A stretch of DNA of 64,000 nt from Euglena gracilis. Lineage: Eukaryota. Position 1 is the stretch's first letter; each line of letters opens with the position of its first letter. The stretch spans positions 20,446,642-20,510,641 of the forward strand of contig CP154954.1 in assembly GCA_039621445.1 (NCBI GenBank), read 5' to 3'. A model generated the notes under the pieces. It saw nothing but the letters and a program-made list of their open reading frames with translations. It was not told where the DNA came from and did not search any database. The position numbers were made by a program, and so were the translations under genes. Shown one piece after another: positions 3,172 to 52,686 of this stretch.

Positions 3172-3346
3172 CAAGGTTCCCGTTTTTTTTTGTTTTACAA
3201 CAAAGCAAAAAAAACTTTCATGAGTAAAAAATGGTTTAAAAACGGTTTTTTTATTTTAAAAAAGGGTGTTTTTTTAAAATAAAACACAACAAATAGGAAA
3301 AAAACCTGTTTTAAACAACTTGTATAAAAACAGCCCGGGAACCTTG
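3172..3346. mobile_element. MITE of the CAAGGTTCCC family (also 12706-12876)
   Basis: Same TIRs as 1123-1305 in the opposite orientation, flanked by a ggtgg direct repeat. Confidence 0.8.
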
Positions 3347-3484
3347 GGTGGCATATCAAGGAGAGGACATGGGAGACAGGAGTGTGAAGCGGGTATGGTT
3401 CATGTGGAGGGGGTGGGTTAACCAAGGTCGACAGGTGTTTACTGGGAATAGGGGAGGTGGCAACCGGCAGATAGGTCAGTGTCA

Positions 3485-3880
3485 TTTGACAGGTTGGTGT
3501 AGAAGCTCCAAACCAGTTGTTTAGAGATTTCTTTGGCCAGGAGTGAGAGTCCTTGCCACACTTCTGCTTGGGTTTGGCGCTGAAGCCAACTCTCCCTTTG
3601 CCCTAACAAGGCTTTAAGGAGAGTGGACATCAGAGAATGGCCTTGCTGCCCCATGCCGCCAAACACAAACGGGGTGAGGCGCCAGCCTCGTCTCGAACAT
3701 GTTGCATCATATTTGCGGTGTTTGTCTCTTCTTGTTTTTCTTGCCAAATGGGAAGTTGTGCGGCACGGCTCAGAGGGTTGCTTGGGGTCTGTGTGTGACG
3801 GTTGGTGACGTCGATGGCGACCGGGCCTTCACTGTCAAGGCGAGGAATGAAGATATCGCCAGGCTGAGAATTGTCATCAG
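3485..3880 (-). pseudogene. Restriction-like endonuclease (RLE) domain fragment of a non-LTR retrotransposon
   Basis: QPGDIFIPRLDSEGPVAIDVT ... KHRKYDATCSRRGWRLTPFVF ... QAEVWQGLSLLAKEISKQL, frameshifted. Partial paralog at ~14780-14945. Confidence 0.85.
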
Positions 3881-4019
3881 CCCGTTGTTCTTTTTTTGGC
3901 TTGGAATCTGGCGAGTTGAGCCAAGGAGGTGAGGAAGTCTTGGACCGCTGCGTGTCGCGTGTTTCGAACCATTCAGAGCGCGAAAAGGTATTTAGTCCTA
4001 ATTCATGTGACTTTTCTTC

Positions 4020-4042
4020 TTCTGAGTGTCTATTTTTTTTCG
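4020..4042 (+). other. Genomic copy of the Euglena spliced-leader exon fused to mRNA-like sequence
   Basis: TTCTGAGTGTCTATTTTTTTTCG matches the 3' 23 nt of the E. gracilis SL as I recall it. It is followed by ttggcattcaccATG rather than a GT donor. Identical copy at 58154-58176, degenerate copies at ~7190, ~61367 and ~63577. Confidence 0.8.
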
Positions 4043-5599
4043 TTGGCATTCACCATGTTTTGAAAGCCCCTGGAGGGGTTCAAGTGTGGAGAAGCTGGAA
4101 ATGCTGTTGCCACTGGCCGCAGGTACTGTGGCCGGTGCTGGTATTGCTTTGCGCCTGAAAAGGCCTTGCTTCTGTTTTCTGGGCGCAAAGGCCCCCTATT
4201 CAAGTTGTTTGGTGAAGCATTCAAGTTTGGGTGAAGCCGAAGAAGTTCAAGCAATAACTGAAGTTCAAGAACTATCAAGTTCTTGGTGAACTTCACCGGT
4301 GAAGTTCACCGATGGGTTAGGCAGAGGCCCGGGACCCCCCGGTGAACTTTCAAACGGTGAACTTCACCATGGGGGGGGGGGGAGGGGGGTCAAAATGACC
4401 AAAGTCTACTGCCTGATCCCCTGAGGAGTAAGTGGACAGACCCCTTGTCAGTCCTGTACCCTCGTATTGCTGCTCGTCCAGAAGGCAAACCTGTGGGGCA
4501 GGTTTCATCAAACAACCACCTCCCCCTGTGGGGTAAGCACACCAACGTTTGCCACAGCCTTTGTACGGCTTCACCACAACACTGCGCACGGTCGGTGGAA
4601 AAACAAAAGCTCTGTCGTTCCACCCAGAAGAACTCTTCGGAAAACGCCCGAGGCACCGCAGCCCCTGCCCCTTTTCAAAGACAAGGCACGGAGGTGTTGG
4701 GGACGCGGGGGGGACGCGGGGGGGTCGCGGGGGGGGACGCGGGGGCACCACCATTCTAGGGACCATGATCAAAGCTGACGTTTTTTTAAAAAAAAATTAC
4801 TTTGTTTAAAAAAACCAACAAAAAAGTGTTTTTTTTTAAAAAAATGGAAAGTGTGTTTTTTAAAAGAAGTTTTACAACGCAAAAGTCTTGTCCTCTAAAA
4901 AAAAAGGCTCCAAAAACCGGTGCGTTTCCACACCCAAAATGGAGTTTTGTCAAAAATGGCCCGACATTCATCCCAAAAAATGTGATGGTCGATAAGAATA
5001 TCCTACAAAATTCCCTTTCAAAAAAATTCTTTGGAGGCTAGGCGCGCCACTGGGGGGGGGGGTCCGGGACCCCCCTCCCCCCCCCGCGGCCCCTCGGACC
5101 CCCCCCTCCCCACTGTGCCTAGCATAGCCAAGAAAAAGGCATTTTTTTGAGCAAAAATGGCCCAAAAATGGCCAAAAATGACCATTTTTGGACCCGAAAA
5201 TGGGCCGCGCACCGCCCGGCGGCCCTCCCCCCCCCCCTCAGCGGTGTCGGAACAATTTTTTCCCGGGGGGGGGGGGGGCGAGGAACCGACAAAATTTGGA
5301 GCACATCCTTTTTTCCCCGGCGCGAAGGAAGCGCCGAGGAAAATTTTTTTCATGGCACAACCAAAATGTACTTTTTTCTGTCCCCCTGGCCCCGAAGGGG
5401 CCGAGACGCTAACGCCTTTTTTGAAGTCCAATGCTCCAAAAACTTGAGCTAGAAAGCGAAATCATGGGTAGAACCCCTTTGGAAACCTCCCAATTCAACC
5501 CAACTGTCGACTTCGCAACCTGGGGGGGGGGTGAAGAAGCCCCCTCACCCCCCCCCCACCATGCCTAGTCTCCTTTGAAAGGCAGTCTCTAGCAAACTC

Positions 5600-6562
5600 T
5601 ACTACAAAAAAGAGGTGCCGGACGCCGGTTCTGTCCAAAGCCCGGCGTTCCAAACGCCGGTTCCGTCCGAAGGACGGAACCGGCGTTTGGAACGCCGGGC
5701 TTTGGACAGAACCGGCGTCCGACACCTCTTGTTTAAGCCGGCGTTTTAGAGACGCCGGGCTCAGGACAGAACCGGCGTCCCCAACCTTCGGCCAAAGGAC
5801 ACTCCCAGGACCAATCTCCGACCTCTGATCTGCAATGTCACACCACTTTGCACTTCACCAAATTCCGGCGATCGCGAGGGTATTTCTGGCTGTGTCAATC
5901 GTCCAGGTGTAAAATCACCCCTCGATCGAAAGCTCTTTTCATCAGACGACTGGCGATCACCACCAAATTCAGCCACGTCGCCTGGAGCTCTTATTTTCTG
6001 TCAGTGGGGAATCCTAATTTCACAACTCTGGTGCCCCCCAAGGCCCTCAGGTCGTTGATTCGAAGAGGAAAAACGTTTCTGTAAGGTTTATTAAGCATCT
6101 TAAACCAAAAATCACTGAAAATTGCGACAAATTTCGACTCAGATTCTGGCCGATCCGACGATCGCGAGCGTATCTCGGGCTGCGTGCAACGTTAGGGTAC
6201 CAAGTTACCCCTCGATCGAAAGCTCTTTTCAACAGACGACCAGCGGTGCTCATCAGATCTTTCCACGCTGCACGGTACTCTATTTCCAAAACTGGGCCAA
6301 TTTTCACCAAATTTGGATATCCACCCTAGTGGTCCCCAGATGGCAAAATTCATTGTCCTAGATGGTTGAAACACTCATACCAGCACCTTAGGGCCACCTT
6401 TGGGCACTTTTGGTGACATTTTTAGGAATGAAAACCGGACGCCGGGGGCTTTGGACAGAACCGGCGTTCCTAACGCCGGGCTTTAGGACAGAACCGGCGT
6501 CCGGAAGCCCGTGGGGGGGGACGCCGGTTCTGTCCTGAGCCCGGCGTCTCAAACGCCGGCTT
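5600..6562 (-). mobile_element. Family A TSD-less hairpin element (Helitron2/Helentron-like architecture)
   Basis: Empty site at 62958/62959 (gcaaactc^aaaatggg). 59-bp stem with GAA loop at 5610-5730. Asymmetric inverted repeats at 5735-5782 and 6517-6562. No TSD. Confidence 0.85.
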
Positions 6563-9399
6563 AAAATGGGAAGATGGCTCTTTGGTATACACCATGATCA
6601 GAATTTCCAGGTGAGAGGATGGGCTGAACGCCATGGGCTGTAAAAAATCGACAAAATGGAAAAGACAACAGGAGATGGGAACGGTGTCAACAAAAAGGAC
6701 ACAAAATGGGAAATGTGTGCAGTGGTTGCAGGGGGACATCCTAGGATTAGCATTGATCATGCCGAACAAATAGGAAATAACAAATGGACACTCTTTGCAT
6801 GGCCAACACCAATTGTCTTCCCGAATCCCATCAACTACAGTGTAAAGAAATGGGAAGCATTCCCTTAGAGACTCGTTAGGTCACGACCTTCACCCATCAC
6901 AAGCGGTAGGGGGGTCCCACGGGACCCCTCCACCCATGCCTGGGCTCCAGCAACTCACATTTTTTGAGGGGCAAGGATAAATTTTTGACTTATCACTTGT
7001 TTTTGCAACGTTCTTTTTCCTTCTCCCCTCTTCTTCGTTTCATCGCATCAAGCATTGCAGAAAAGCCTCTTCAAAAAAAAGGACACCAAGCCACTTGGTG
7101 GGGACGCGGGGGGGACGCGGGGGGGGGGGACGCGGGGGGGACGCGGGGGCTCAACCCCCATTTAGTCCTAATTCATGTGACTTTTCTTCTTCTGGGTGTC
7201 TATTTTTTTTTGGTCGCATTCACCATGTTTTGAAAGCCCCTGGAGGGGTTCAAGTGTGGAGAAGCTGGAAATGCTGTTGCCACTGGCCGCAGGTACTGTG
7301 GCCGGTGCTGGTATTGCTTTGCGCCTGAAAAGGCCTTGCTTCTGTTTTCTGGGCGCAAAGGCCCCCTATTCAAGTTGTTTGGTGAAGCATTCAAGTTTGG
7401 GTGAAGCCGAAGAAGTTCAAGCAATAACTGAAGTTCAAGAACTATCAAGTTCTTGGTGAACTTCACCGGTGAAGTTCACCGATGGGTTAGGCAGAGGTGG
7501 GGGGCCCGGGACCCCCCGGTGAACTTTCAAACGGTGAACTTCACCATAGGGGGGGGAGGGGGTCAAAATGACCAAAGTCTACTGCCTGATCCCATGAGGA
7601 GTAAGTGGACAGACCCCTTGTCAGTCCTGTACCCTCGTATTGCTGCTCGTCCAGGAGGCAAACCTGTGGGGCAGGTTTCATCAAACAACCACCTCCCCCT
7701 GTGGGGTAAGCACACCAACGTTTGCCACAGCCTTCGTACGGCTTCACCACAACACTGCACACGGTCGGTGGAAAAACAAACGCTCTGTCGTTCCACCCAG
7801 AAGAACTCTTCGGAAAACGCCCGAGGCACCGCAGCCCCTGCCCCTTTTCAAAGACAAGGCACGGAGGACAGCAGGGTCACGCAGAAAAGGAAGACGCTAC
7901 AAGGCCCAGGCGATACCTCCGCTCGACACGACAAAAGGTCTCGGAAGCCCATGGGGGGCATTTGGCCCGACCAACCTAGCCGGCTGGCAGACCAACCTAG
8001 CCGGGTGGCAGACCAACCTAGCCAGCCAACATGCCGGCTGTCCAGATGTTTGTCCAGATGAAAGCCACTATCGCTAGCCGCCCGGCTATCCAGACCAAAC
8101 AATACGTACGCGCGCTGTGTACGTATTGTGCTAGGGGGACTAAGTTCGTCGGGGCCAAACTTCGCCCGGGTGAATGTTCGGACCTTAGGAGCTCCGGACA
8201 AAAAGATGCCTGCCGGAGGCACCCCCCCCCCCGTAGTGGAGAAGCGGACCACGACCGGCGCGAGCATTCGGTGATGTGTCCTGACCGTCCCCCCAGTCAC
8301 GCAGGGTTCCCCCGGGAAAAAAGGTGCAGAACATTAACTCGCAGGTGTGTTACATTTTCTGCAGAAGCCTGATTTGATCATTTACACAAGGTGCGCCCAA
8401 GGCCTCGCAAAAAAAACCTAAATAAATCCAGCCTGAAAAGCAAAAGGATTTGTTTCAAGGGGGCATAACCCAAAAAAATACAAATAATAATACAGGGGGT
8501 GGCGTGCAGACCAGCAGATTGCACTTACAATGCAAAACCCCAACGGCAGGTTGGTACACCCCTCCCCCCCCCCCTCTCCGAGTGCCTCGCCACGTAGCCG
8601 GACCCCCTCGCCACCGGGATTTTCGCGATTTTTTGAGATTTTCGCGATTTTTTGAGGGAAAATTGCTTGGCCCCCCTTCTCACATAACAGGGCAAAGCAC
8701 AGAACCAGGGAAGAAAACAACATGCAGTGACAATTAAATCTGCACATGGGCCATGGGGGGGCCACCAGTCCAGAGCCAAATGAATGTCGATAGAGAGGCC
8801 AATGGCCCAAAAGCTGGGTGGGGACCACAGCTGCCGGTGGCCACCAGTGGGGACCGATGTGGACCACAGGGACAGGCCACGGGCCAATGAATAAAAATTC
8901 AAGTTACAGCACAAACTGGTACAGTGCACTTGTGGGCTGGCACGGAGAGGTTGGCGGGCTGACAAAACTGTGGCATCTGAGAGGTCCCAGGTGCGGAAGG
9001 AAGGAGATGCGTCGCCTGAATCCATGGGCTTGGACCAGGAGCCACCGGTTTGAGTAGTTGTCAGGTGACAAAATGTCCGAAATTTTTTGTGTTTTGTATT
9101 CACCTCAGGGCTCAATGGGGTCTTGAAATTTTCAAGCGGTTTTCCGCAGTAATACACGGTGGGTAGCACAGCTTCATCCATACGTCTCTTTTGGCCCTCG
9201 CCACAAGGAGAACCTGCTCATGACTCCCTGTGCGCACACAGGGCAGTGGTAGCTATACTGAGGTTGCTGTACAAAGAGATCTTCGGTGACTTGGTGAGAG
9301 GTTACCCCCCCCCCATTATGCACCTCCCCCCGGGAGGCCGAAACTGGGGGGGAGGTACACTGCTTCCATACCAACCCGCTACAATTCTCTGTAGTGACT

Positions 9400-10796
9400 C
9401 CAGATGAATGCTCACAACACTGGTGGCAACAGGAACTCACCAAATCCTCAATTGACAATTTGCTCGCCAAACTGCCCCCCAGGGATCAAGCCCGTTTGCT
9501 GGGGGTGTTCCCCCCCCACCCCCCCGCCCCCCCCCCCCCCCGCGTCCCCCCTGCATCCCGGATTTTGGCCGGGTACATTTTTTCGGTCGACTAAAGGAAA
9601 AGTACACACAAATTTTGTTGACGCCAAAGAAAACGAGTGGGGCCAGTTGGGCAATTCCCCCGCCCCCCGCGTCCCCCCCCCGCGCAGTGGTTTCGGTCAC
9701 GGTTGGATGGCATCCCCTCCCAACTTCGCGAACCACTGCATAATCAAACCAGTTGACTACTGCCTGGGCCCGAAATGGTGGCTGGGCTTGCAAATATCCC
9801 CGACTTCACCTGATGCACTTTGTGAAGGCTGCCAAAGTGCGGTGGATCCGTTCGGGGATCACTGGATGTGCTGCATCCGGAACAACTTCTCTCTGCGCCA
9901 CAACGCCGTACAGGACGCTCTTTTCACACTTTTGTCCAACACCGGCCAAGGGGTACAGAGGGAGGTCCCAGTTCCAAATCAACCCGATGGCAGTCTACGC
10001 CCTCCTGACCTGTTGTTGGCCAGTTGGCAAGATGGTCAACCAACAGCAGTCGACATTACAATTTGCCATTGCTGGCAAGCTTCAGAAAGAACAGCATCGA
10101 GAGAGCTTTGGCGCATATTCCTAAAGAGAAAAGAGACCAGCAAGCGCCTCAAGGAGGTTAGGCAGGGGTGGGGGGGGGCTGTGGACCCCCCCCGGTGAAG
10201 TTCACCGGTGAACGTTCACCGGGGGGGAGGGGGGGGTACTTTCGGCGGTGAAGTTCACCGGTGAAGTTCACCGGTGAACTTCACCGTTTTGATGGTTGGG
10301 GGTGAAAATTTCACGGGTAAAATTTTGCTCCTTTCCTCTCAAAATGGTCATTTTGAGGTTGATGCTTCATGGAATTTTATCGAAATTTCCGAAAACTTGC
10401 CTGAAATGCCATTTTTTGGCCATTTTTGGCCAAAAAAAAGTGCTCTCTTGGTGAACTTCACCGGTGAAGTTCACCGATGGGTTAGGCAGAGGGGGGGGGA
10501 GGTGGTCCGGGACCCCCCGGTGAACTTTCAAACGGTGAACTTCACCATAGGGGGGGGGGAGGGGGGTCAAAACGACCAAAGTCCACTGCCTGATCTCCCA
10601 AGTAACGGCCCGTGCAAAGCAGGAGGCTGGACTTTCACCATGTTGGCATTCGGAACCTGGGGAGGCGGCCTGGGTCCGGAGACGTCCAAACTGCTCGGTA
10701 GGATCATCAAACGAGCAGCTGCATGGCATGACGGTGAACAGCGAACGACGCGTCACGCCAAACTCTACCAGAGCATATCCCTAGCCCTCGCCCGAG
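9400..10796 (+). pseudogene. C-terminal CCHC + RLE region of a CRE-like non-LTR retrotransposon
   Basis: CEGC...DPFGDHWMCC, RHNAVQD, REVP, LRPPDLLL, AVDITI, K..KY, GWTF..LAFGTWGG. Interrupted by insertions at ~9500-9690 and 10153-10598. Confidence 0.9.
10153..10598. mobile_element. MITE with 3-bp TSD (GGAGGTTAGGCAG...CTGCCTGATCTCC), GTGAAGTTCAC palindromic subterminal repeats
   Basis: TSD caa/caa and imperfect TIRs. Partial relatives at ~4285-4420, ~14957-15346 and ~53264-53455. Confidence 0.85.
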
Positions 10797-11930: not shown

Positions 11931-12385
11931 GGAGGTTAGGCAGGGGTGGGGGGGGGGCCTGTGGACCCCCCCCCCCCCGGTGAAGTTCACCGGTGAACAT
12001 TCCCGGGGGGGGGGGAGGGGGGGGGTACTTTCGGCGGTGAAGTTCACCGGTGAAGTTCACCGGTGAACTTCACCGTTTTGATGGTTGGGGGTGAAATTTT
12101 CATGGGTAAAATTTTGCTCCTTTCCTCTCAAAATGGTCATTTTGAGGTTGATGCTTCATGTAATTTTATCGAAATTTCCGAAAACTTGCCCAAAATGTCA
12201 TTTTTTGGCCATTTTTGGCCAAAAAGTGCTCTCTTGGTGAACTTCACCGGTGAAGTTCACCGATGGGTTAGGCAGAGGGGGGGGGGAGGGGGTCCGGGAC
12301 CCCCCGGTGAACTTTCAAACGGTGAACCTCACCATAGGGGGGGGGAGGGGGGGTCAAAATGACCAAAGTCTACTGCCTGATCTCC
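11931..12385. mobile_element. MITE of the GGAGGTTAGGCAG family
   Basis: TSD aac/aac. Empty site catagaacgccccacgg at ~2851-2867. Confidence 0.9.
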
Positions 12386-13014
12386 AACGCCCCACGGAGT
12401 CTCTCAAGGACAACAATCGACAAATTTTGCACAGGGAAAAAATTGGGGGTAGGGGTCCTTGAGCCCCCCCCCCCCCCAATTGAATTGGCTGATTGGGGGT
12501 CTGAAGGAGCCCATTAGCCAAATAGGGGGGGGGGGGAGGGTAATGTGCCAGGGAGGGGGGGGGGGGGCGCGTGTGTTGTGCTTTCTTTCCGTTGGATGGC
12601 GTGTGTGTGTCGGGACCTAAGGGCTGTTTTGCTCCATGGATTCATATGGGTTTCGGTTAATTTTCATCTTTGGTCGCGAACAGATGGCTACACTGACGTT
12701 GGTGGCAAGGTTCCCGTTTTTTTTGTTTTACAACAAAGCAAAAAAACTTTCATGAGTAAAAAAACGGTTTAAAAACGGTTTTTTGTTTTAAAAAAGGGTG
12801 TTTTTTTAAAATAAAACACTACAAATAGGAAAAACCTGTTTTAAACAACTTGTTTAAAAACAGCCCGGGAACCTTGGGTGGCATATCAAGGAGAGGACAT
12901 GGGGGACAGGGTGGTTGGTACGCCATGGCGAGGGGGTCCGAATAGGGGGGGGGGAGGGAGGGTAAATGGCGTGGCGAGGGGGTCGGCGACCAAGGGGGGG
13001 GGAGGGGCGCAAGG

Positions 13015-14527
13015 CGGTAGACTGGGGGGGGGGGGTAGTGGGTAGTCGGCCGACTAGTCGGCCGACTACCCAATTGGTCCACCGACTAGTCCTAGTCGGT
13101 AGCTAGTCGGCGAGACAGGGGGGGGGGGTAGTGGGTAGTCGGCCAACTAGTCGGCCGACTACCCACTCTAATGTACTAACGGGTCAAAACCGCCGACTTT
13201 TAAGCCCCCCCCCATGAACAAAATCCAATGCAAACTAGTCGGTGGCTAGTCGGCGGTCATAAAAATGGTCTGTGGCGGGCCCAAATCACCCGGAAATGGT
13301 CCGGATGGGTCCAAATAAGTGTCTTACGCCTAAATAAACACCCCCAGATGGAAATCTTTGGTCAGTGGGGGGTCGGTGGGCCCTTGATGGGGTCCGGAGG
13401 GGTAAAAAACCAATGATGAAACAGGGATTACATTAAAATCCTTTAGAAATGCAATCTGCAATCTGCGTTTTGCATCACGAGAGGCAGAAAACTCCCCCCT
13501 CCACCCCAATCCGACCCCCCCCCTCAAATAACAAAATCCCTTCTGTGTTGGCAACATACTCGGGGGCTAATTCGTTTTTGTGGCTCACTTTGGCATAGGC
13601 GGGGGGGGCTCCGCCCCCCCGCCCGCACCCCCCCCCCCCCCCCCCCCCTCAAATAACAAAATCCCTTCTGTGTTTGCAACATACTCGGGGGCTAAGTCGT
13701 TTTTGTGGCTCACTTTGGCATAGGCGGGGGGGGGTGGGTGGCTCCACCCCCCACGCACTCCCCCCCTCAAATAACAAAATCCCTTCTGCGTTGGCAACAT
13801 ACTCGGGGGCTAAGTCGTTTTTGTGGCTCACTTTGGCATAGGCGGGGGGGGCTCCGGCCCCCCCCTCAAATAACAAAATCCCTTCTCTGTTGGCAACATA
13901 TTCGGGGGCTAAGTCGTTTTTGTGGCTCACTTTGGCATAGGCGGGGGGGGCTCCGCCCCCCCCCCCCCCCCCCCCCCCTCAAAAAACAAAAACCCCTCTG
14001 TGTTGGCAACATACTCGGGGGCTAAGTCGTTTTTGTGGCTTACTTTGGCATAGGCGGGGGGGGGCTCCGCCCCTCCGCACCCCCCCCCTCAAATAACAAC
14101 ATCCCGGCTATGTTGGCTATAGACTTGGGGGATAAGACCCTTTTTTTGTGCAAATTTTGACTTATATTGAAAATTCAATGGGGAGAGGTGTACTTTTGTC
14201 AAAAGTGGCCCAAAATGGACATTTTCCCCCAATTTTTTTTTGCATATTCACCCCCGATTGGGGGGTTCTGGAGCCATTTGGGTCGGTTTTGACCGGCGTT
14301 GAGGTGATTCAGACATTTTTTTTTACCAGGGGGGGGGGCTTAAAAGTCGGCGGTTTTGACCCGTTAGTACATTAGAGTGGGTAGTCGGCCGACTAGTCGG
14401 CCGACTACCCACTACCCCCCCGCCGACTAGCCACCGACCAATTAGTCGGCCGACTAGTCGGTGGACCAATTGGGTAGTCGGCCGACTAGTCGGCCGACTA
14501 CCCACTACCCCCCCCCCCAGTCTACCG
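13015..14527. mobile_element. Foldback-type element with ~200-bp TIRs built of TAGTCGGCCGACTA palindromes
   Basis: cggtagactggggg... / ...cccccagtctaccg. Arms at ~13015-13215 and ~14329-14527. No clear TSD. Confidence 0.8.
13521..14105 (+). repeat. Minisatellite: ~80-bp constant unit separated by variable G-run/C-run hairpin linkers
   Basis: ccctcaaataacaaaatcccttctgtgttggcaacatactcgggggctaagtcgtttttgtggctcactttggcataggc, 5 full copies plus one partial. Confidence 0.9.
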
Positions 14528-16320
14528 TTTGGCACTGGGGGGAGGGGTGTACCATGGTATCCAACAAAATTTTCGTTCAAAAAATCACGAAAATCCCCGG
14601 CGGCGTGACGAGGGGGTCCGGCTAGGGGGGGGGGGTAAATGGCATGGCGAGGCCCTCGGAGGGGGGGGGAGGGGTGTACCAACCCCCCACGGGAGTGTGA
14701 AGCGGGTATGGTTCATGTGGAGGGGGTGGGTTAACCAAGGTCGACAGGTGTTTACTGGGAATACGGGAGGTGGCAACCGGCAGATAGGTCGTGTCATTTG
14801 ACAGGTTGGTGTAGAAGCTCCAAACCAGTTGTTTAGAGATTTCTTTGGCCAGGAGTGAGAGTCCTTGCCACACTTCTGCTTGGGTTTGGCGCTGAAGCCA
14901 ACTCTCCCTTTGCCCTAACAAGGCTTTAAGGAGAGTGGAAATCAGAGAACGTCCTTGTGAAGTTCACCGTTTGAAAGTTCACCGGGGGGTCCCGGACCGC
15001 CCCCCCCCCCTCTGCCTAACCCATCGGTGAATTTCACCGGTGAAGTTCACCAAGAGAGCACTTTTTGACCAAAAATGGCCAAAAATGACATTTTTGGGCA
15101 AGTTTTCGGAAGTTTCGATTTAATTACATGAAGCATCAACCTCAAAATGACCATTTTGAGAGGGAAGGAGCAAAATTTCACCCATGAAAATTTCACCCCC
15201 AACCATCAAAACAGTGAATTTCACCGGTGAACTTCACCGGTGAACTTCACTACCGAAAGTACCCCCCCCCCCGGTGAACGTTCACCGGTGAAGTTCACCG
15301 GGGGGTCCCCCGCCGCCCCCCCCCCCCCCCGTACTGCCTAACCTCCGAGGACTTTGACCTCTACCTCTACCTCTATCCAGCCCTGACTCAGCACGTACCG
15401 AGCACACACAGCACGCACCGCTGTACATGTTGTACATAGAACGCCCCATGGAGTCCCTCAAGGATGATGTGGAATGTACATTTCTAACCCGCCGGAGCAC
15501 CATGTAACGTGACCCCCCCTATTTGTCCCCCCCCCCTAATTGGCCAGAGCCCAGGTGGCCAATTAGGGGGGGGGTTACTCATTTTCAAGGGAAAATGCCT
15601 TTATTGGGTGTTTACGGGGGTTCGCGACTATGAAGGACGGGGTCCAGGTGGCCAATTAGGGGGGGGGTTAGGGGTAACCCCCCCCTAATTGTCACCCCCC
15701 CCCCTAATTGGCCAGAAGGGGGGTCCGGGCCGCCCGGAGGGCGGCCAAATAGGGGGGGGGGTGTTGGTACATAAAAAGTGCACGCCGGTATATGTATGAC
15801 CCCTGATCCGCGAAAAAAAAATCGAAACAATAGTGGTGGTGGGGCAAATGGTTCGAAACTGTTGAATCTGGTTAATTTTTCAGAAGATTTCACCTGTGCA
15901 GCACAGCCACCTCGGGAAAAGGTGTCACAAAAACATTGGGGAAACATTTGCTCAGTTTTGTGCCAAAAGAAACTGCAACAATCCTTGTCCGGAGCCGACG
16001 CCGTTCGGTTTGCTTGCCAAACAAGGCCGCATGCAATGGCCTGGGCATGTGCATGCCCTTCAATAGGAGTGAAAACTCTCATTCCGACCAAAGAGTTTGG
16101 TGCCCTTCTCCAATGGACCCTGGGTGCTCCTGTAGTAAAATCGGATGAGGGAGACTTGGATGTCCACGATGTAGGAGTGCGCTTGACACAGCTGGCCACC
16201 ACCTCTTCTGCTGCCACCGCAACAACCTTACTCGACGGCATGGGGTGGTACAAAGCTTTGTCCTGAGCCTTGCGAGTTGGCTTCCCGGCACGTCGTGAAG
16301 AGAAAGCCGAGGATGGCACC

Positions 16321-17038
16321 CAAGGTTGACGGCTTGTTTTTTTTAAACAAAAAAAACATGTTTTTTTTGAAAAAATATGTTTTTTTAAAAAAAACGTGTT
16401 TTTTTGAAAAAAAAATTTTTTTAAAAAAAACGTCATGTACGGCTTAGGGGAAAAATTTTTTGCATTTTTTTTTTAGAAAAAAGTTCATTTTTTATCTCCG
16501 CAGCATTCATTTTTTGTTTTTTTGGGGGGGGTTTGAAAGCATGATTTTTTTGCACTAGAAAACACAGATTTGGAAATACTTTCACACAAAGAAAACTTTA
16601 GAGGGGGTGTTCCCCCCGTGACCCCTCCCTCGACCCGACCTAGGACCCTTTTCGGCCATTTTTTTTCTGAAAAACTTTGCCGGTGATGCCTAATTTGACA
16701 AAATATTCAGGTAGATTCCTATTTTTGAGGCATAAATTTTGCAAAATTTGGAATGGTGATGCCTAATTTGGTGTCAAAATGCTAATTTTAAGTTGGGGAT
16801 TCCTAATTTGGAGCCTAAAAAGGATTTTTTCCCAAAAAATTCGCTTTCGGTGATTCCTAATTTGGCCACCAAAAAATGTGATGTTCCCCCGTGACCCCCG
16901 ATGACCAAACCACCCCCGAAAATTTTTCTTCAAAAAATGGCCATTTCGCAAGGAAAAAGGTACATGTTTTTTTTGTGCTATTTTTAAAAAAAACATGTTT
17001 TTTTGTTGTTTTTTTTTTAAAAAAAAACATCAACCCTG
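16321..17038. mobile_element. hAT-like MITE (CAAGGTTGAC...TCAACCCTG)
   Basis: Perfect 8-bp TSD atggcacc at 16313-16320 and 17039-17046. Confidence 0.92.
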
Positions 17039-17149
17039 ATGGCACCCGACCCGGAGACGTGTTCATCACCCGGTTTGACGCCAATGGACCCGCTGCCATC
17101 GATGTCACTGTCCGGCACCCACTGGCATCGTCCAGGTCACCCCCAGCTC

Positions 17150-18864
17150 TGTGACAAGAACTGTGTTTGGGCCAAGTGTTGGGGGAGCCTGGGGGCGGGG
17201 ACCGCGGCGCCGAAGGCGCCGTGGTCGCCCCCAGGCCCCCCTAAAACCTTGGCCCAAAACACTGTTCTTGGTTTAAAAACGTGTTCAGCCCGCCAAATGC
17301 CTGCCCTGAAATTCGTGGTCATGAACACGTTTTCAATGAGGGCATCTGTGGCAATGACACATTTTCAATGAAGCCATCTGTGGTTAGGCACGTTTTCAAT
17401 GAGGGCATCTGTGGCAATGACACGTTTTCGATTAAGGCATCTGTGCTCAGGCACGTTTTCAATGAAGGCATATGTGGCAACCCTGAGTAAAAAGCAAAAA
17501 ACGCTGTCATGAAAAATCGGCGGGTGGTTGCGAGGCCGGGTGGTCCTCAACGAGTGAGGCGGGTCGGGGGCACTCTACAACACGACAGAAGGCTAGGTTG
17601 CCTTGGAGCACAACGAGACAGAGTGGCGGACATCACTGAACACGACACGCTTTACACAAAAAAGAGCCATACTTTGGTGGCCGCCGCAATCTTGGCAATG
17701 AAAATGATATGCCAAACCGCAGGCGTCACAGACAACTTTGTTCAGCTCCACACAATTTGGATTTTTGGGAATGGGAACACCACAAAAACCACATTTCTGC
17801 TGTTTTATAGGCAGTCGGGACACAGCACAAGGGACAGGGGGTTGGTCAGGGGAGGAAACGGAGCTGCTGACCACAGGAGCGGAACGTTGCTCGGCGGTGG
17901 GAAACACAGACGGAACATCGGTCAGGTCCTGATTTTCGACCGAGTGTTTTGCGGAATGCCCGAGCGACGGCATTCACGTATGTCTGAAAAGAGGTTGCCG
18001 AACGATTCCCTGAAACGAACAAAGTTCCCGACTGCTGCTCACGTTGAGCCACACATTGTTCAAAGACGCTCGCCTCATCGAACAACAGGCTGGGTTCCAG
18101 CTCCCATCCCGTCCAGGCAACAAAGAAAGCATCCAGCTCAGGATAAGAGGCTTGCCGATGTTGACACAGTTTGGCAAACTCCAAACAGTTGGCAACAGCA
18201 GCAAGCTCTGCACCTACGGAGCCGGACTTTTTCTTTGTGTTGCCCTGTGCCAGCAAGGTGCCATGAAGGGGGTCAACCTTCGGCTTCTTGGCATCTTGCT
18301 GGTATACCGCGAGAGCAGCCAGGAACAGTTCCGTCCTAGGGGGAGGTGGTAAAAGACCATTCACAAAGTTAGCCGTGCGTTTCGCCATAGTGGGAGGGCT
18401 GCGGAAAAAGGGTGGGGGTGACACGTTTTCAATGAGGGCATCTGTGGCAATGACACGTTTTCAATGAAGGCATCTGTGGTTAGGCACGTTTTCAGTTTTC
18501 AATGAGGGCATCTGTGGCAATGACACGTTTTCAATTAAGGCATCTGTGTTCAGGCACGTTTTCAATGAGGGCGCCGTTTCTTGGGTCCGAATTTCACAAA
18601 TTCGCGTTTTTGACCCCTTGCGTGAATCATGACCACGAATTTCAGGGCAGGCATTTGGCGGGCTCTGAACACGTTTTTAAACAAATTGTGGCTGAGCCCA
18701 GATTTCAGCCTGAAAACGTGTTCAGGGGGCCCCCTTCGGGAACCCCCTGGCTGAACACGTTTTCAGGCTGAAATCTGGGCTCAGCCACAATTTGTGTATA
18801 GAAACCGTGTTTGGGCGAAGATTTAAAACTTTTAACGTCTCGAAATCGGCCCAAACACGGTTTC
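17150..18864 (-). mobile_element. Family G TSD-less hairpin-ended element carrying a gene
   Basis: Terminal GAA-loop hairpin at 17156-17269, TTC-loop hairpin at ~18681-18794, second hairpin at ~18799-18864. Inverted repeats at ~17278-17330 and ~18620-18675, plus ~31-bp tandem units. Inserted at gctc^aagt. Confidence 0.8.
17593..18388 (-). pseudogene. Element-borne gene: helical N-terminal domain plus PHD-like finger, frameshifted near 17935
   Basis: ATG at 18388, preceded by a pyrimidine tract + CAG acceptor. C-terminal CGFC...CDAC...YHFHC...FC pattern. Confidence 0.65.
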
Positions 18865-19798
18865 TACTACAAAAAAGAGGTGGCGTTCCGGACGCCGGTT
18901 CCGTCCGAAGGACGGAACCGGCGTCCGGAACGCCAGGCTTTGGACAGAACCGGCGTCCGCCACCTCTTGTTTAAGCCGGCGTTTTAGAGACGCCGGGCTC
19001 AGGACAGAACCGGCGTCCCCAACCTTCGGCCAAAGGACACTCCCAGGACCAATCTCCGACCACTGATCTGCAATGTCACACCACTTTGCACTTCACCAAA
19101 TTCCGGCGATCGCGAGGGTATTTCTGGCTGTGTCAATCGTCCAGGTATAAAATCACCCCTCGATCGAAAGCTCTTTTCATCAGACGACTGGCGATCACCA
19201 CCAAATTCAGCCACGTCGCCTGGAGCTATTTTCTGTCACTGGGGAATCCTAATTTCACAACTCTGGTGCCCCCCCAAGGCCCTCAGGTCGTTGATTCGAA
19301 GAGGAAAAACGTTTCTGTAGGGTTTATTCAGCATCTTAAACCAAAAGTCACTGAAGATTGCTACAAGTTTCGACTCAGATTCTGGCCGATCCGACCATCG
19401 CGAGCGTATCTCGGGCTGCGTGCAACGTTAGGGTACCAAGTTACCCCTCGATCGAAAGCTCTTTTCAACAGACGACCAGCGGTGCTCATCAGATCTTTCC
19501 ACGCTGCACGGTACTCTATTTCCAAATCTGGGCCAATTTTCACGAGATTTGGATATCCACCCTACTGGTCCCCAGATGGCAAAATTCATTGTCCTTGATG
19601 GTTGAAACACTCATACCAGCACCTTAGGGCCACTTTTGGGCACTTTTGGTGACATTTTTAGGAATGAAAATCGGACGCCGGGCTTTGGACAAAACCGGCG
19701 TTCCTAACGCCGGGCTTTAGGACAGAACCGGCGTCCGGAAAGCCCGTGGGGGGGGGACGCCGGTTCTGTCCTGAGCCCGGCGTCTCAAACGCCGGCTT
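18865..19798 (-). mobile_element. Family A TSD-less hairpin element, second copy
   Basis: Homologous to 5600-6562, with the same ends tc^tactac...ggctt^aa. Confidence 0.85.
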
Positions 19799-19828
19799 AA
19801 GTGGACAACTGGCACCACCGACAGGAGG

Positions 19829-20240
19829 CAGGGTTGACGTTAAAAAACAACAACAAAAAACATGTTTTTATAAAAAAACCCGCAAAAAAACATGTTTTTT
19901 GAAAAAGCAAAAATTGACCTTTTTCCCTGTGAAATGGCCATTTTTTGAGGAAAAAGTTCTAAAGTCATTTTTTTTGGTCATCAAAGTGACGTTTTCTTTC
20001 GTTTTCCCAGACCCTTCATCCAAAAATACTAAAATCATGGTTCATGTGAAAACCATCACCCTTTACGGACTACGAAGTTGCAAAGATAAAAAAAATGACC
20101 TTTCTCCTTTAAAAAAGATTCAAAAAAGTTTTCACCCAAACCCTCCGTGGCATTTTTTTTTGTTTTTTTATAAAAAATCATATTTTTTTAAAAAAAGACA
20201 TGTTTTTTTTGTTTCAAAAAAAAACAAGCTGTCAACCTTG
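19829..20240. mobile_element. hAT-like MITE (CAGGGTTGAC...GTCAACCTTG)
   Basis: Perfect 8-bp TSD acaggagg at 19821-19828 and 20241-20248. Confidence 0.92.
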
Positions 20241-21520
20241 ACAGGAGGAAGACAAAATTGCCAAGTATGGAGACCCTTGCAAGCGGCGTGGCTGGACCTT
20301 TGTTCCCTTGGTCATGGACTGCTATGAGGCATGAGTGAAGCAGGACAGGGCTTCATCTCCACATGCATCCGCCTTCTGACCAGCCAACACAACGGCTGGG
20401 AGATGCGGGGTGTGGAGGCCAATGTGTGGCAGGGAATTGGAATGGCATTGATGCGAGAGCTAGCCCGACAATTGGCTTGGGGGCAATGCCCTGAACAGCT
20501 TCTGCTGTGGTGACGTAAGTACACATGCCCCGTACCAGTCGTAAATGGATATTCAGCCTTTCAAATGACCGTAGCGGTCTCTGCACCTTCTACCGGCCCC
20601 TGGGCTCCCTTGCAACTTGTGATTTGCCACTTCTCAAGCCCGATAAACACAATTCTCACCGAAAACTTCCACGCAAGGATGTGTCAGTGCAGGAGCCGGA
20701 GAACGCGGGAAGCACGCAGCGGGACGACGGATGACGGAAGGCAGAAGCAGCGGGCGGACGGAGCACAATGCCCTCTGTTGCTCATGTACGCTAGCTAACC
20801 ACCAGGAACGCCTGGGGGCTACGGTGGCCACACGAGAAAGTGGGTTTTGCTCATTTTCAATCTCACAACGCTCACGTCAGCTGTAAATAACTCTCACCAC
20901 CTACGGTGTAAATGTTGTGCATAGAACACTCAACCGAGTCCCCTCGGGATGACGTGGAATGTATATCTCTGACCCGCCGGAGCACCATGTACACAAAAGG
21001 TGCACGCCGATTATATCTGGTTTACCACCCCCCCCCCCTAATTGACCCCCCCCCTAATTGACCAAACGCCCTGGGGAAAATTTTTTCACCCCCCCCCTAA
21101 TTGACTGCCCGAGGGGATTCCGTGCTGAAGCACCCCCTAATTGACGGTACCCCCCCCCTAATTGACGCCCCCCCCCCTAATTGAACCCCCCCCCCTAATT
21201 GACCAAAAGGGGGGTCCCGTGGAGAGGTCCCACGGTCAATTAGGGGGGGGGGAGGTGGTAATACAGTTTTTTTGCATTTAACTTCTCCGAGCTGTTTAAA
21301 ACCCAACCCTGGCTGCACCCAAGGTAAACAGGCAAGGCCTGTGAAAACGGCCAAAGTTCGTACGCACCCGGCCGGGGGCTGCGGTTCAGACTGTCTGTTC
21401 CTCCCCGGGGAAACCCGGGTGGCCCAGCGGGGGCTCTGGCCCCTTCTGGGTTGCACTGGAGTGTGGCGCACTGGTGTTGGGGATCGCTATCGACTGGGTC
21501 ACTGGCCAGTCACCTAAACG

Positions 21521-27703: not shown

Positions 27704-30116
27704 GTCCAAAGGGGGCTGGGAACCCTTCCCAGGCTGTATTTTGCAATGCCGACTCACTGGGCTCATGCGTCAAAAATGGGCCCAGCGCTGCCCCGCCCAG
27801 GGTTGACAAGGAGGTCTCTGGGGCCAAAATTATGCGATGATGGTGCTTTCTACGCTTTCAATGGCGAGTGCCAAAGTAACTTGGGCCACACACATAGATT
27901 CACTGAACACCTGTGCGACCCCCCCTGGGGGTGGGTTTTCGAGAGTGGGTGGGTGGGTCGGGGCCTCTGGACCACAGCCAAAATCGTCCCAAAACGCTGG
28001 AAAAAATTTACGTTCAGCAAGGCCAAAACCCTGACCCATGCGCACCCTACCCCTCAGCGGGGGATTGTTTTACTTAAGTCTCAGACCCCCCCCCCCCCAG
28101 GGCCGCCCCCAGGAGGGAAGGAGGGAGGGAGGGTAGGTCATGATCCCCTGGAGGGGGGTCAGATCTTTCCTCCCCCTGTAAAAATACGCACAAAGCGCCA
28201 GAAATTTTTGGGGATTTGAAATTTGCCCCCCCCAAATGGCATTTTCGGGCATTTTTTTTCTCACCGACTCTATCAAAAATATTGTGCAATGCACACACAA
28301 ACACATATCTTATGGCGGGTTCAACCCCCCCCCCCCCCAAGAAGGGGAGCAGGGGTGCCTACATCATTTTCAGTTTGGTGACATTGGGGGTCCCCAGGGA
28401 CAAGCCGAGTGCTTAACCCCCCCCTACGGGGGGCCCTCCCTCTTTTTTTTGTGCGAAGCAACAAAAAAATTTGGACTCAAGATTGTCTCCCCCAAGCCCC
28501 CCACCCCCAAGGTGTGCGTTGCACAGAAATGCTCTCACCAGTAGGAAGGATGTGGTTGCTTCGGTGCCTGACTGTTGTTCAGTCAAATCCAGCCTGCTCC
28601 TCACCATGTTGTCTGCGGCACCTAAGCGCCAAGGGCAGCATGCCAGGTAAGCAATGCCGCATGTGCGGCCCCTCAATGACCCCCCCATTGGGTGTCGGCC
28701 GCCGTGTCAGTATATGATGTTGTGCGTGTACGGCGTACAATGGTGCCTCTGCAGGGTCTGATACTTTGGGGTGGTGGAATGTGGACCATCAAATTAAAGA
28801 GGGCTGTCACCGCCCCCCACCTCCCACGCTTCCTCCCTGATGCCTGAAATGGTCGGGGTCCCTTGTGAAGCCAGGGTCTCTGGGTCAGGAGGTCAGGAAG
28901 TTGTAGCAAACCGGTTCTCGAATTGCCAGGGACAAATGATGGGCGAGCACCCTGCCGTCACAGCGAGCTCCTTCCGCAGCCTCTCAACCCCTGCCTCCGA
29001 TAGGCTGAATTTGACCAACCTGGGGGGGGAGGGGGGGGGGCAGGGCAGAACGGGAAGGCCTGGTGGGGGGGGGTGGTCGACCCCCTCCGACACCCTGGTT
29101 GTTTGGCCGACTCCCGTTCTGCTTTGAGGGAGGGCCCCTCCCCGGGAAGGTGGCCCAGACCTGTACTGCGCTGGAAAAACCGGGCCACATACCACCCCCA
29201 CAAAACTGTCCTCTACCCACTTTTCTCTCACAGGGACCTGATAGTCTGGCTCCTGCCCCGTCTCTTGACAGTTTTTCCCCCACATTTTACAGCAATTTCC
29301 CACAGTGAAGAAAACTACAAACACTTTTTCCAGGTTTCTGGTCATGAACATGTGTGAGCTTTATTTTGGATTCTTCTGTTGGCGGCAAGCAACTGTCATT
29401 TCCCCCTCTGATCGAGACCCCCTCGGAAATTGTCCTCTGGTCCTGCACTCGCTTGTGCGTCCTCACAATGCGTCCTCACAATGCGTCATCACAATGCGTC
29501 ATCACAATACGAGGAAAGTCGTCTTTAATAATGAGGAAAGGTGCTGAAAACCCACCCCAAACACCATGGTCCCCAACCATTACAACGCAAGCTTTTGGGC
29601 ATTGGCTTCGGAAGTTATCATTGTTTTGCACAATACCTTAAAGAGGGGACGTGTTTCGGGTTACCTGACAGTTAGGCCCTGGGCCAATCCGTGTCACCCT
29701 GGCTCGGTCACCCCCCCCTGGTGCATTGGGACAGTGCTGAAACAGGTTGTGTGTTCAAGGATTTCCTTTCTGTCCCAAACATATTTAAAAGTATTCATCT
29801 CAGTTTGAATCTTAAGCCCCCCCCCCCAGTTGTTTGTTCACAAAAACAAGGGAACGCCGTCACACAAGACGCTGTATCAGACCTTCATTTGGGCCCTTGT
29901 TGCAAGTGTTAGGCCGGATGACCTCCTTCCTGGCCTGACCCAGAGCCTTTCTCGCGCTTTCTTGCTGGCCTCCACACTGCTTTTCTAACGTCTATTTTTT
30001 TTCTTCACTTGTTGCAAGGGGGGAATGAAACTATGTTTCTTTTGCAGCCTTTGCATTTTTTCGCTTTTGGTGTTTTTCTTGCATGTTTCGAAACAGTGTC
30101 CATGCATGAATGCATG

Positions 30117-30301
30117 CATGTATGTATGTATGTATGTATGTATGTATGTATGTATGTATGTATGTATGTATGTATGTATGTATGTATGTATGTATGTATG
30201 TATGTATGTATGTATGTATGTATGTATGTATGTATGTATGTATGTATGTATGTATGTATGTATGTATGTATGTATGTATGTATGTATGTATGTATGTATG
30301 T

Positions 30302-30341
<40 letters not shown>

Positions 30342-30796
30342 ATGTATGTATGTATGTATGTATGTATGTATGTATGTATGTATGTATGTATGTGTGTGTA
30401 TGTGTATGTATGTATGTGTATGTGTATGTATGTATGTATGTATGTATGTATGTATGTATGTATGTATGTGTCTGTCTGTATGTATGTGTATGTATGTATG
30501 TATGTATGGTATGTATGTGTCTGTGTGTATGTGTGTATGTATGTGTGTATGTATGTATGTATGTATGTATGTATGTATGTATGTATGTATGTATGTATGT
30601 ATGTATGTATGTATGTATGTATGTGTGTATGTATGTGTGTGTGTATGTATGTATGTATGTATGTATGTATGTATGTATGTATGTATGTATGTATGTATGT
30701 ATGTATGTATGTATGTATGTATGTATGTATGTATGTATGTATGTATGTATGTATGTATGTATGTATGTATGTATGTATGTATGTATGTATGTATGT
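30117..30796. repeat. (TATG)n microsatellite
   Basis: Direct reading, with a few TG interruptions. Confidence 0.97.
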
Positions 30797-31649
30797 AGTA
30801 TGCATACACACCCACACACTTGCGTTTTTTTTTTGTTTTCTTGCTCGTTTTTGTATTTTTGTGCCGCTTTTTTCAAAGTCCACGTTGCATTCTCTCCCCC
30901 CGTTTGTTGTTCACTTCTGTGCTCTTGATATTTTCACAATCAATCTTCACATTGTGCGATTTGTGATGAAATGCGTAGATGGAGCCCCTCTTTGTTGAAA
31001 AATTGAGACAGTAATCATCTCATTAGAGTTTTTGGGGGCAGAAGTAGAGTATTTGCAAAAATAGTTTCACAAGGGTTTTTTGCAGACCATTCAGGTATGT
31101 GCTTCCTCTCGCGCAGTATTGTGCAATCAAGGGCTCTTCAAGAAAAATACATGAGAATTATTGAATCATTGAAACGTTTTCGGAAAGGGGTGGCAAGTCG
31201 ACAAACAATTGCATGCGGTGATGGCTCCAGATTAACCCTGAATATTCAACGATTGCTCATTTTGTGGTAATTTCCTAACTTTTGCTCTTTTGCTCTTTTG
31301 CTCTTTTGCGTCCCCAAACTTTTGCAGTCTAATGTGTCCATTTCGAAAATTGATTGAAAATTGGCATGGCGGCCGTCCACATGACAGGGCAGGGGATGAT
31401 ACTTCGGTCTGCATCGTTGATTCTGATGAATTTGACCCCCTGGGAGGACAAATATCACTGCGCTGGTTGAGTGCCCTCATTCCTCCTCGCAACAGATCAA
31501 TGTCATTTCTTGCAATCTGCCCTGTAGCGACCATAACAGCCGATGTGTGATGGGCCCGAAGCGGAAAGGGGATCGGCCCTCACGTTGATGGGGAGGAGCC
31601 TCCCGCATTTTTTTTGTGGTCCTTTTAATACAATTCGTCTCAGAAAAAT

Positions 31650-31858
31650 CTGTGTGCGTGCGTGCGTGCGTGTATGCGTGCTGTGTTGTGCATGCGGTGT
31701 GTGTGTGTGTGTGGTGTGTGTGTTGTGTGTGTGTGTGTGTGTGTGTGTGTTGTGTGTGTGTGTGTGTGTGTGTTGTGCATGAGTGCGTGCGTGTGTGTTG
31801 TGCATGCATATTGCAAGGGTGTGTGTGTGTGTGTTATGTGTGCGTGTGGTGTGTGGCG
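31650..31858. repeat. Degenerate (TG)n
   Basis: Direct reading. Confidence 0.9.
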
Positions 31859-31903
31859 TTTTGTCCTAAGTGCTTCTTGGCCTCAACGTCGGTGCCCCGG
31901 CAA

Positions 31904-32782
31904 CCAGACCGCCTAGCGGCCACCCTGCGGGCCTTTGACGCCCACTATGGAGCGGTGTACGGCGGCCGCTGGGTTGGCCTCAGGCAGGCGATGCAGCGCC
32001 TGGGGTGAATCTCATGCACCGCCGCGGTGGCGAGGGGTGGCGGTGGCCACTGTCAGTGTGTTCCTGGGGGACGGATCGATGGGGACATGCCTCTGATGGG
32101 AAAATGTTTTTAGGTAACGATCTAAGCTTGATTATGCATGAAAAAATGTTAAAAAAAGGACTGGGATGTTTACTATTTTTCCTCTTGGTTGGGGAACCTT
32201 ACTACCCCCCCCCCCCCCAAGTAATAACCCCCTGGGTATTCTTTTTTTCGCCCGAAGTCCCGGCCCGGGGGGGGGAGGGCCATTGTTTGGGCGGGGCAAT
32301 CGCACCCCAAATTTTTCGAAATTTTTCGAAGTCCCGTAATACGGGCCCAAAACAGCACCCAAAACCACCCTTTGGGGTCATTTTTTTTGTATTTTCTCAT
32401 GAAATTCAGCATTTTTGGAGGCCAGATGATCCAGAAAAATCAATTTCTTTTCGTATTTTTTTTGTCAGAGATTGAGATTTTTACCTATGTTTTCAGGTCA
32501 AAATCCGGGTCGTCGGCCCGAGATTGGGGGGAGGGTATTGATTCGGTCGCCGAAGTTGGAACCCGAGCGGGGGGAGTATTATTTGGGGGTGGTATTATTT
32601 GAGGGGAGGGTTTACTTTGCTCTTGAAGCCCCAAACTCCCGGTGTCTTGCAGCAAGAAAGTCAGCCACAACACCAAAAAAGAAAGTGGGCCGCACTCCTG
32701 TCCTTATTCTCAGCACCGATGGGCCCCATCCCAACCCACGCAGCACATTGTCCGCGTCAACGGCTTTGCCCCGATGGAGGAG
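31904..32782 (+). CDS. N-terminal exons of an NSUN3/NSUN4-like RNA m5C methyltransferase (partial)
   Basis: Exon ~31904-31996 LRAFDAHYGAVYGGRWVGLRQAMQ and exon ~32735-32782 PTQHIVRVNGFAPMEE|gt resemble the F..Y...G..W..R..L......ALVN.F N-terminus. A possible next exon follows ttttctgcag at 33161. No catalytic motifs were found. Confidence 0.6.
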
Positions 32783-34668: not shown

Positions 34669-42476
<7,808 letters not shown>

Positions 42477-52595: not shown

Positions 52596-52686
52596 GGGGG
52601 TGCCGTCAATTAGGGGGAGGTGCCGTCGATTAGGGGGGGGGGGTACCGTCAATTAGGGGGGTACCTTCAATTGGGGGAAGCAATGT

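Follow-up and report, generated by a model that had tools for sequence, protein, structure and literature searches.

What kind of element ends in giant hairpins, inserts without duplicating its target and multiplies to very high abundance in Euglena gracilis? The question is raised by a 64,000-nucleotide stretch of E. gracilis DNA, hereafter the window (assembly GCA_039621445.1, contig CP154954.1, positions 20,446,642 to 20,510,641 of the forward strand; position 1 is its first letter), in which members of two repeat families, G and A, lie back to back at 17150-19798. In G, profile and structural models predict the beginning of a Cre-like tyrosine recombinase gene, including its DNA-binding N-terminal domain. 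A and G were probably moved by a tyrosine recombinase, which would make them something other than a wholly new kind of element. The reading favored here, held at somewhat better than even confidence, is that both families are non-autonomous or deleted members of one group integrated by a Cre-like tyrosine recombinase, inserting at TT^GAR (minus strand; the caret marks the insertion point). The family G copy and its open reading frame (ORF) are located as follows.

17150-18864, minus strand (the sense strand of G is the window minus strand): family G copy, its boundary ambiguous by one C.
17849-18388, minus strand: ORF of 180 amino acids in G, its residues 1-150 matching the core-binding (N-terminal) domain in a family of Cre-like tyrosine recombinases.

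Relatives of the G ORF were sought with phmmer among 1.84 billion representative proteins. The search returned 86 relatives at E <= 1e-3, including 40 at E <= 1e-10, and the best (E 2.6e-29) is 45% identical to the G ORF. Most matches, the best included, begin at or near the N-termini of the proteins matched. The G ORF and its relatives share the starting methionine and the opening motif, and they align without gaps across 150 residues. A profile of 16 relatives, from which the row of the window was left out, matches the G ORF at E 3.5e-43 over profile positions 1-150. Past residue ~150 the ORF runs into unrelated, frame-shifted, cysteine-rich sequence. An ORF piece that starts at the family start codon and then gives way to unrelated sequence is the pattern left by internal deletion of an autonomous element. 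The family had been missed by a word-indexed homolog search (0 of 88 candidates) and was later found by phmmer.

The relatives are stand-alone proteins of 400-490 amino acids with a C-terminal helix-turn-helix-like region. Residues R234, K267, R361, R362 and Y392 are invariant in all five full-length relatives (Y392 in the numbering of P0012, one of these relatives). The AlphaFold model of P0012 has a mean pLDDT of 80.4. Foldseek gave 47 matches to this model at E <= 1e-3, those listed being tyrosine recombinases, and paired it with Cre at E 1.7e-7 and probability 1.0. VIA-align superposed the model on Cre with Z 18.0 and a root-mean-square deviation of 3.8 Å over 290 residues (model 27-409, chain 12-341), followed by XerH, Tn1549 integrase, integron integrase and lambda integrase. 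The resemblance of the model to Cre spans both domains. Pfam Phage_integrase gave weak matches, each below the cut-off, to 5 of the 17 alignment members (best E 0.001), and a profile search of Protein Data Bank sequences with the recombinase family returned nothing significant (best E 1). With a 5-row recombinase alignment, none of 20 candidate stretches in viral contigs and none of 66 in prokaryote genomes were relatives. Pfam assigned no family to any of ten window ORFs, and Rfam gave no matches. An ALOG-domain lead from the protein atlas was dropped, as none of the 17 alignment members has a Pfam ALOG match.

G also contains a cysteine-rich frame of 126 residues (17470-17850, minus strand), downstream of the recombinase fragment and in a different frame. 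Its cysteine pattern is like that of a PHD-type zinc finger, but it has no Pfam match. The relative P0008 likewise ends in a cysteine-rich tail.

Are the ends of these elements real, and did the elements move? Three copies of family A and one empty site bear on this.

5600-6562, minus strand: family A copy A1, sequence TACTAC...GGCTT, with flanks ...AACTC and AAAATGG.
18865-19798, minus strand: family A copy A2, 96.5% identical to A1, abutting G.
59733-60737, minus strand: family A copy A3, a duplicate of the A1 insertion with its internal arm disrupted at ~59881-59956.
62958/62959: empty paralogous site for A1 and A3, reading AACTC^AAAA with uninterrupted flanks.

The flanks of A1 read straight through at 62958/62959. 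The boundary of A is therefore unambiguous, and family A inserted without a target-site duplication (TSD), as a previous reading made from the sequence alone (the sequence-only reading) had claimed. Identity between the flanks of A1 and those of the empty site is 97.4% over 1630 bp and 98.2% over 1055 bp, and both sites lie within a 2.2-kb tandem unit. A1 and A3 represent a single event because they lie in a segmental duplication of ~7.9 kb, in which 1-5747 matches 54136-59880 at 99.4% and 5783-7867 matches 59957-62050 at 99.2%. This leaves only two independent insertions of A and one of G.

The segmental duplication carrying A1 and A3 extends over 1-7867 and 54136-62050 (99.2-99.4%), and its copies diverge past 7867/62050. 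The 2.2-kb unit recurs in a tandem array at 3990-7867 and 58124-64000, where units are 97-98% identical and one is filled by A while the next is empty. In A3, ~76 nt of T-rich and other sequence (59881-59956) stand in place of 35 nt of A1 (5748-5782). The replaced stretch breaks the internal complementary arm of A3, though A1 and A3 stem from one insertion.

G and A2 are directly adjacent, in agreement with the sequence-only reading, which had also placed the pair inside an RLE pseudogene whose frame returns when both are deleted. Removal of G and A2 in silico indeed leaves an open frame, ...SPPAQVDNWHHRQEAG, whose paralog reads ...AAQLPIWQEKQEE at ~57946 and 3746 (both minus strand). The homologous paralog DNA is GCACAACTT, so the codon split at the insertion point, C^AA, belongs to the host. 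Frame and paralog alignment were thus recovered, with one correction: residues given as RQEE read RQEA in the sequence. The identification of the host as RLE was unsupported. Pfam found no families in three read-through frames of the host paralog (54200-58120, minus strand), none of 49 candidates was related to the host ORF in a homolog search restricted to proteins of 206-2000 residues, and the protein atlas offered unnamed clusters only. The inner junction between G and A2 reads TTC^TAC, and the claim that all three insertions lie at TC^AA requires that the insertion of G preceded that of A2.

The host of the pair (16940-17149 and 19799-19941) is itself a short, very abundant repeat, with a summed contig depth of 2-7 × 10^5. 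It is bounded by ~24-nt inverted repeats (GGCCATTTC...AAAGGT) and AAAAACATGTTTTT palindromes.

The stretch was found in 20 public sequencing runs from 16 studies, and contigs of four DNA runs (four studies) were mapped on 16000-21000. Matching contigs on this 5-kb stretch numbered from 35,533 to 52,979 per run. Summed word depth, which is not a copy number, was ~0.4-1.8 million inside G and A vs 870-4,300 in the outermost bins, a several-hundred-fold rise inside the elements. A, G and the short host repeat are all very abundant. Eighteen contigs of run X3 fit the sequence from 17148 on and agree with it at only 0.41 before that point, so other G copies have the same start and the same preceding TC in different flanks. 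No contig skipping G, A2 or both was among the joints listed, a result that does not address polymorphism. RNA-labelled runs contain about a quarter of the sampled words, and no claim of transcription rests on this. A metagenome scan with a 21-nt family-A motif was set aside; its two loci are both ordinary bacterial coding sequence without A-family context.

These data bear on the suggestion that A and G are immobile, being palindrome-rich satellite or segmental-duplication debris in which the "empty" unit is a deletion. Duplications and tandem arrays abound in the window, and A1 and A3 are one event, as such debris would have it. Still, A1 and A2 are alike from first base to last within unrelated flanks, the empty site is exact to the base, and once G and A2 are removed the reading frame returns and aligns with the paralog. 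The contig counts and the depth rise inside the elements likewise argue against debris, and the debris explanation is highly improbable.

What do the two families share? Their parts are listed by position.

5606-5734: giant hairpin of A1, with 63-nt arms 97% complementary and a GAA loop at 5669-5671; folding energy (dG) -98.7 kcal/mol, z -17.4.
5735-5782: internal arm of A1, complementary to the other terminus (96% over 48 nt).
6460-6562: hairpin at the other end of A1, including the terminal arm 6517-6562; -53.4 kcal/mol, z -9.0.
17150-17155, minus strand: 6-nt tail of G, a leader TGTGAC on the plus strand, outside the hairpin.
17156-17267: G hairpin H1, with a GAA loop at 17212-17214; -70.9 kcal/mol, z -10.6.
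17268-17324: G inverted-repeat arm, partner of 18627-18685 (95% over 59 nt, E 3e-20).
17325-17480: G tandem array 1, ~5 copies of 31-32-bp units.
18419-18572: G tandem array 2, ~5 units in the same orientation as array 1 and 92% identical to it.
18627-18685: G inverted-repeat arm, partner of 17268-17324.
18678-18798: G hairpin H2, with 48-nt arms 98% complementary.
18801-18864: G terminal hairpin H3, with a stem resembling that of H1.
18871-18972: shortened hairpin of A2, with perfect 26-nt arms.
18973-19020 and 19753-19798: arms of A2, respectively the internal complement of the left end and the terminal arm.
44650-44806, plus strand: short, degenerate G-like remnant that terminates ...CTTGACATA, then GAA.

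The hairpins of A and G are far beyond chance, and the H2 and H3 end of G folds at -97 kcal/mol (z -15.6). A giant hairpin with a GAA loop, earlier ascribed to both families, is present in A1 and G, and that of A2 is shortened. The internal inverted repeats described with it are real in each family; in A, positions 133-183 of the element pair with the 3' end at 96% (E 1e-15). In both families one arm of the long-range inverted repeat directly follows the first hairpin. A short motif occurs in both orientations in A1 (eight copies) and A2 (seven), and nowhere in the window outside the A copies. G is likewise composed of a short motif of its own, repeated in both orientations, and its center is flanked by its two arrays. 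A and G have little sequence in common, but both carry the junction motif CTTG(G)TTTAA at the boundary of hairpin and arm. Their ends are also alike, with T-R-Y-K-ACAA at one end and CGGYTT at the other.

Within G, TACACAAAAAAGAG (17653-17668) resembles the family A leader. Three of the four runs have contigs that connect ~17660 with 18864 on opposite strands, at a depth of up to 25,399, which suggests a common rearranged or nested G variant.

Read on the minus strand, which is the strand of the G ORF, A and G have one order of parts. First comes a left end that folds into a hairpin, then the body and a stretch complementary to the left end. The giant hairpin follows, its outer arm forming the right end of the element, and a tail of 6-10 nt comes last. 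In A these are a 48-nt left terminus, the body, its complement, four bases, the giant hairpin and a 10-nt tail. The termini of A were joined in silico and the reverse complement of the joint was aligned to the element. In A1 the complement of the joined ends is one continuous internal stretch on the 3' side of the body (ORF orientation), consisting of a 48-nt block with one 2-nt internal gap, a 6-nt gap, and 60 columns with two mismatches up to the loop. A2 shows this layout through the left half and over the junction, and its hairpin arm contains indels; in A3 the left half is disrupted. In G, contigs of all four runs join 17270-17277 to 18802-18810, and these joints are read as G variants with both complements side by side. 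The terminal 17 nt of G are inverted relative to the arm behind the 6-nt leader, so that inverted terminal repeats are only loosely present.

The junctions on the minus strand read AAG...GAG for A and GAA...GAG for G, giving the start of each element and the flank after it. By site, the flank after the tail is GAG at A1, GAG at the G/A2 pair, GAA where A2 meets G, and GAA at the remnant ending at 44806. The upstream (5') flanks are ATTTT and CACTT. The minus-strand target is TT^GAR, which equals TC^AA of the plus strand.

How would such an element integrate? The most likely chemistry is that of a tyrosine recombinase acting on a joined-end intermediate. The ends of the element would be joined in a circular or end-to-end intermediate, and the internal complementary region (ICR) would template or hold the joined-end junction, as proposed for DIRS1-type elements. 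The recombinase would exchange strands between the first triplet of the element, AAG for A and GAA for G, and a GAR of the genome that follows TT, on a presumed 3-nt crossover. Exchange at these triplets would produce no target duplication. It would leave a GAR-type triplet at each junction and the TT context only at the left one, and a later element could land exactly at the left end of a resident element. The back-to-back pair would be explained by this, since the left junction of G recreates TT^GAA, exactly where A2 sits. A may have been served by the same enzyme as G, and copying may run through RNA, in the manner of DIRS elements, or remain at the DNA level as in Cryptons.

The same junctions could in principle reflect another single-strand DNA mechanism, IS200/IS605-like (HUH Y1) or protelomerase-like, with the hairpin-side flank read by internal guide pairing. 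The constant flank (TC on the plus strand) directly adjoins a short leader and then a subterminal hairpin, and no TSD is made. Loops of the cGNAg type have very high stability in single-stranded DNA. Two to three flank bases past the other end of A extend the complementarity of the internal arm in both independent copies (to 6565 and 19800). That extension amounts to just 2-3 nt in two events, though, and a regex search saw no HUH-type ORF in the window, where the Cre-like recombinase domain is the only element-borne protein signal. Such a mechanism is improbable.

Several observations weigh against integration by a Cre-like tyrosine recombinase as proposed here. The recombinase piece could be captured cargo, as only G has the ORF and the ORF covers the non-catalytic first 150 residues. 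The recombinase profile matches nothing else in the six-frame window, which contains no catalytic domain, and no reverse transcriptase was seen there. Longer fused forms of P0012 were absent among 7658 candidates, which is weak evidence. The termini of A are direct repeats of each other by the orientation of their motifs, whereas inverted terminal repeats are a DIRS1 feature. The last 6 nt of the A tail are missing from the internal complement, whereas the right extension of DIRS1 is complementary to the ICR. In this copy of G the end complements are non-adjacent. Start and flank triplets agree at only two of three positions, and the target rule comes from three to four events (two of A, one of G and one degenerate G-like end). 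The topology of A and G also fits that of Helitron2, and their extreme abundance differs from the low copy number of Cryptons (PMC8969392).

Pfam detected no reverse transcriptase, RNase H or methyltransferase in 20 ORFs and three read-through frames, and the window holds no autonomous copy. It is possible, if rather doubtful, that A and G belong with an autonomous partner to a lineage of eukaryotic tyrosine-recombinase elements not yet described. Such a lineage, equally conjectural, would unite a Cre-like recombinase below the Pfam cut-off with double-hairpin termini and an internal stretch complementary to the joined ends. Its members would insert strictly at TT^GAR without a TSD, and its non-coding derivatives would be massively amplified. 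Amplification on this scale is unreported for recombinase-only elements in the literature compared. A genome census would have a fair chance of raising A and G to a new lineage of recombinase elements.

Tyrosine-recombinase elements have been described as rare and low-copy, and their integration step is still largely a model. If the favored reading is true, this genome would supply thousands of natural integration events from which the crossover site could be read. Short and enormously numerous derivatives may offer exact ends, an empty site, a joined-end complement and a short target.

Other repeats are present in the window. An AT-rich element of 170 bp with 11-bp terminal inverted repeats (CAAGGTTCCCG) occurs at 12706-12876 and, on the minus strand, at 1123-1305 and 55257-55439. 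It looks like a miniature inverted-repeat transposable element and is unrelated to A and G. Matches to CTTG(G)TTTAA at 12849, 1142 and 55276 belong to this element and were discarded. Short-period tandem arrays, up to 98% alike in parts, are dense at ~30100-30800 and 39250-39700, and the bin 30001-32000 has strong GC and AT skew. Palindromes with long runs of G or C alongside lie at 10186-10286, 11968-12075, 13020-13160 and 14435-14500. These G/C-run palindromes, for example CCCCCCCC and GGTGAAGTTCACCGG, and the TAGTCGGCCGACTA arrays are further repeat families with hairpin potential.

To which described class do A and G come closest? On present sequence data, membership in DIRS1, Crypton or Helitron2 would not be granted, because in each class at least one defining feature fails or lies beyond the data of the window. 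Helitron2 elements are described with a terminal 5' asymmetric terminal inverted repeat (ATIR) inside a 5' hairpin and a 3' ATIR upstream of the hairpin at the 3' end. They are said to end in a short tail and to insert after TTTT without making a TSD (PMC3627910, PMC4067079, PMC11417382). The Helentron-derived HINE/DINE-1 elements typically reach very high copy numbers and contain internal tandem repeats (PMC4067079). Like these elements, A and G fold into a hairpin at either end, and their 5' arm lies at the terminus and pairs with a subterminal 3' arm directly before the 3' hairpin. They also share the short tail, the lack of a TSD, T-richness of the flank on the 5' side, tandem repeats and huge abundance. 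They differ in arm length (48-57 nt vs 8-15), in hairpin stems of 50-63 bp, in sizes 3-6 times those published and in a 3' ATIR ~120-135 nt from the end vs 20-30. At the 5' terminus, family A has A and family G has G where Helitron2 has T, and every junction seen has G directly after the element in place of T or C. Their sole coding remnant is a tyrosine recombinase domain and not a Rep/helicase.

A and G may be non-autonomous Helitron2/Helentron-type elements moved by an HUH Rep/helicase, with unusually long ATIRs and hairpins, in which G captured the 5' part of a recombinase gene. The minus-strand layout equals the published Helitron2 description, the 5' flanks ATTTT and CACTT agree with it (PMC3627910), and Helitrons are known to capture gene fragments (PMC5148889). 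The departures in terminal base, target base, ATIR length and ATIR distance speak against this, as does an ORF piece that begins exactly at the family start codon, which is unusual for random capture and expected from internal deletion. Walker-A, HUH and Y2 motifs in a plausible context were not found in six frames by a regex search, a weak test. The Helitron2 explanation is considered unlikely, if less so than the other alternatives. The likeness to Helitron2 noted by the sequence-only reading stands structurally, with no relative of Rep/helicase seen by that motif search; of the two chemistries which it had proposed, HUH or tyrosine recombinase, the second gained direct support from the Cre-like family of the G ORF. 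Taken as a whole, that reading was largely correct in what it observed and about half correct in how it interpreted it. The terminal layout taken as diagnostic of Helitron2 is also the DIRS1 topology, so annotation by structure only could misfile such elements.

Cryptons are described as having no terminal inverted repeats, terminal direct repeats of 4-6 bp and a generally low copy number (PMC8969392). The relatives of the G ORF resemble them in being recombinase-only proteins of ~400-490 amino acids with a helix-turn-helix-like C-terminus, and A and G resemble them in matching a short sequence instead of making a TSD. Unlike Cryptons, A and G have long, structured termini and a shared sequence of at most 3 nt that is imperfect. 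Pfam families related to Cryptons (DUF3504, GCR1_C) were not reported for the recombinase relatives.

DIRS1-type elements differ from A and G in several respects. No reverse transcriptase, RNase H or methyltransferase accompanies A and G in the window, their right-hand repeat pair is a near-perfect hairpin with a 3-nt loop, and their triplets are AAG, GAA and GAG where NTT is usual for DIRS1. They occur as short non-coding or truncated copies of very high abundance, and their recombinase relatives stand alone. The DIRS-1 ICR is essential for retrotransposition, intermediates are mostly linear single-stranded cDNA, and the specificity of the DIRS-1 recombinase is stated to be untested (PMC7192593). 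In the DIRS1 integration model a 3-bp junction sequence recombines with an identical genomic triplet without a TSD, and the start and end triplets of DIRS1 often differ by one base (PMC3266345). The undescribed class suggested by the sequence-only reading was not demonstrated. An arrangement in which the termini are accompanied by an internal complement of their joint is the published logic of DIRS1-type elements (PMC3266345, PMC8969392). A and G share with DIRS1 two consecutive inverted-repeat pairs, TSD-less insertion, a constant short sequence at start and flank, a tyrosine recombinase gene (here an N-terminal fragment, in G only) and insertion next to or into resident copies. In A, as in DIRS1, both joined ends have their complement in an internal stretch toward the 3' side of the body. 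In how they work, DIRS1-type elements would be the closest described relatives of A and G.

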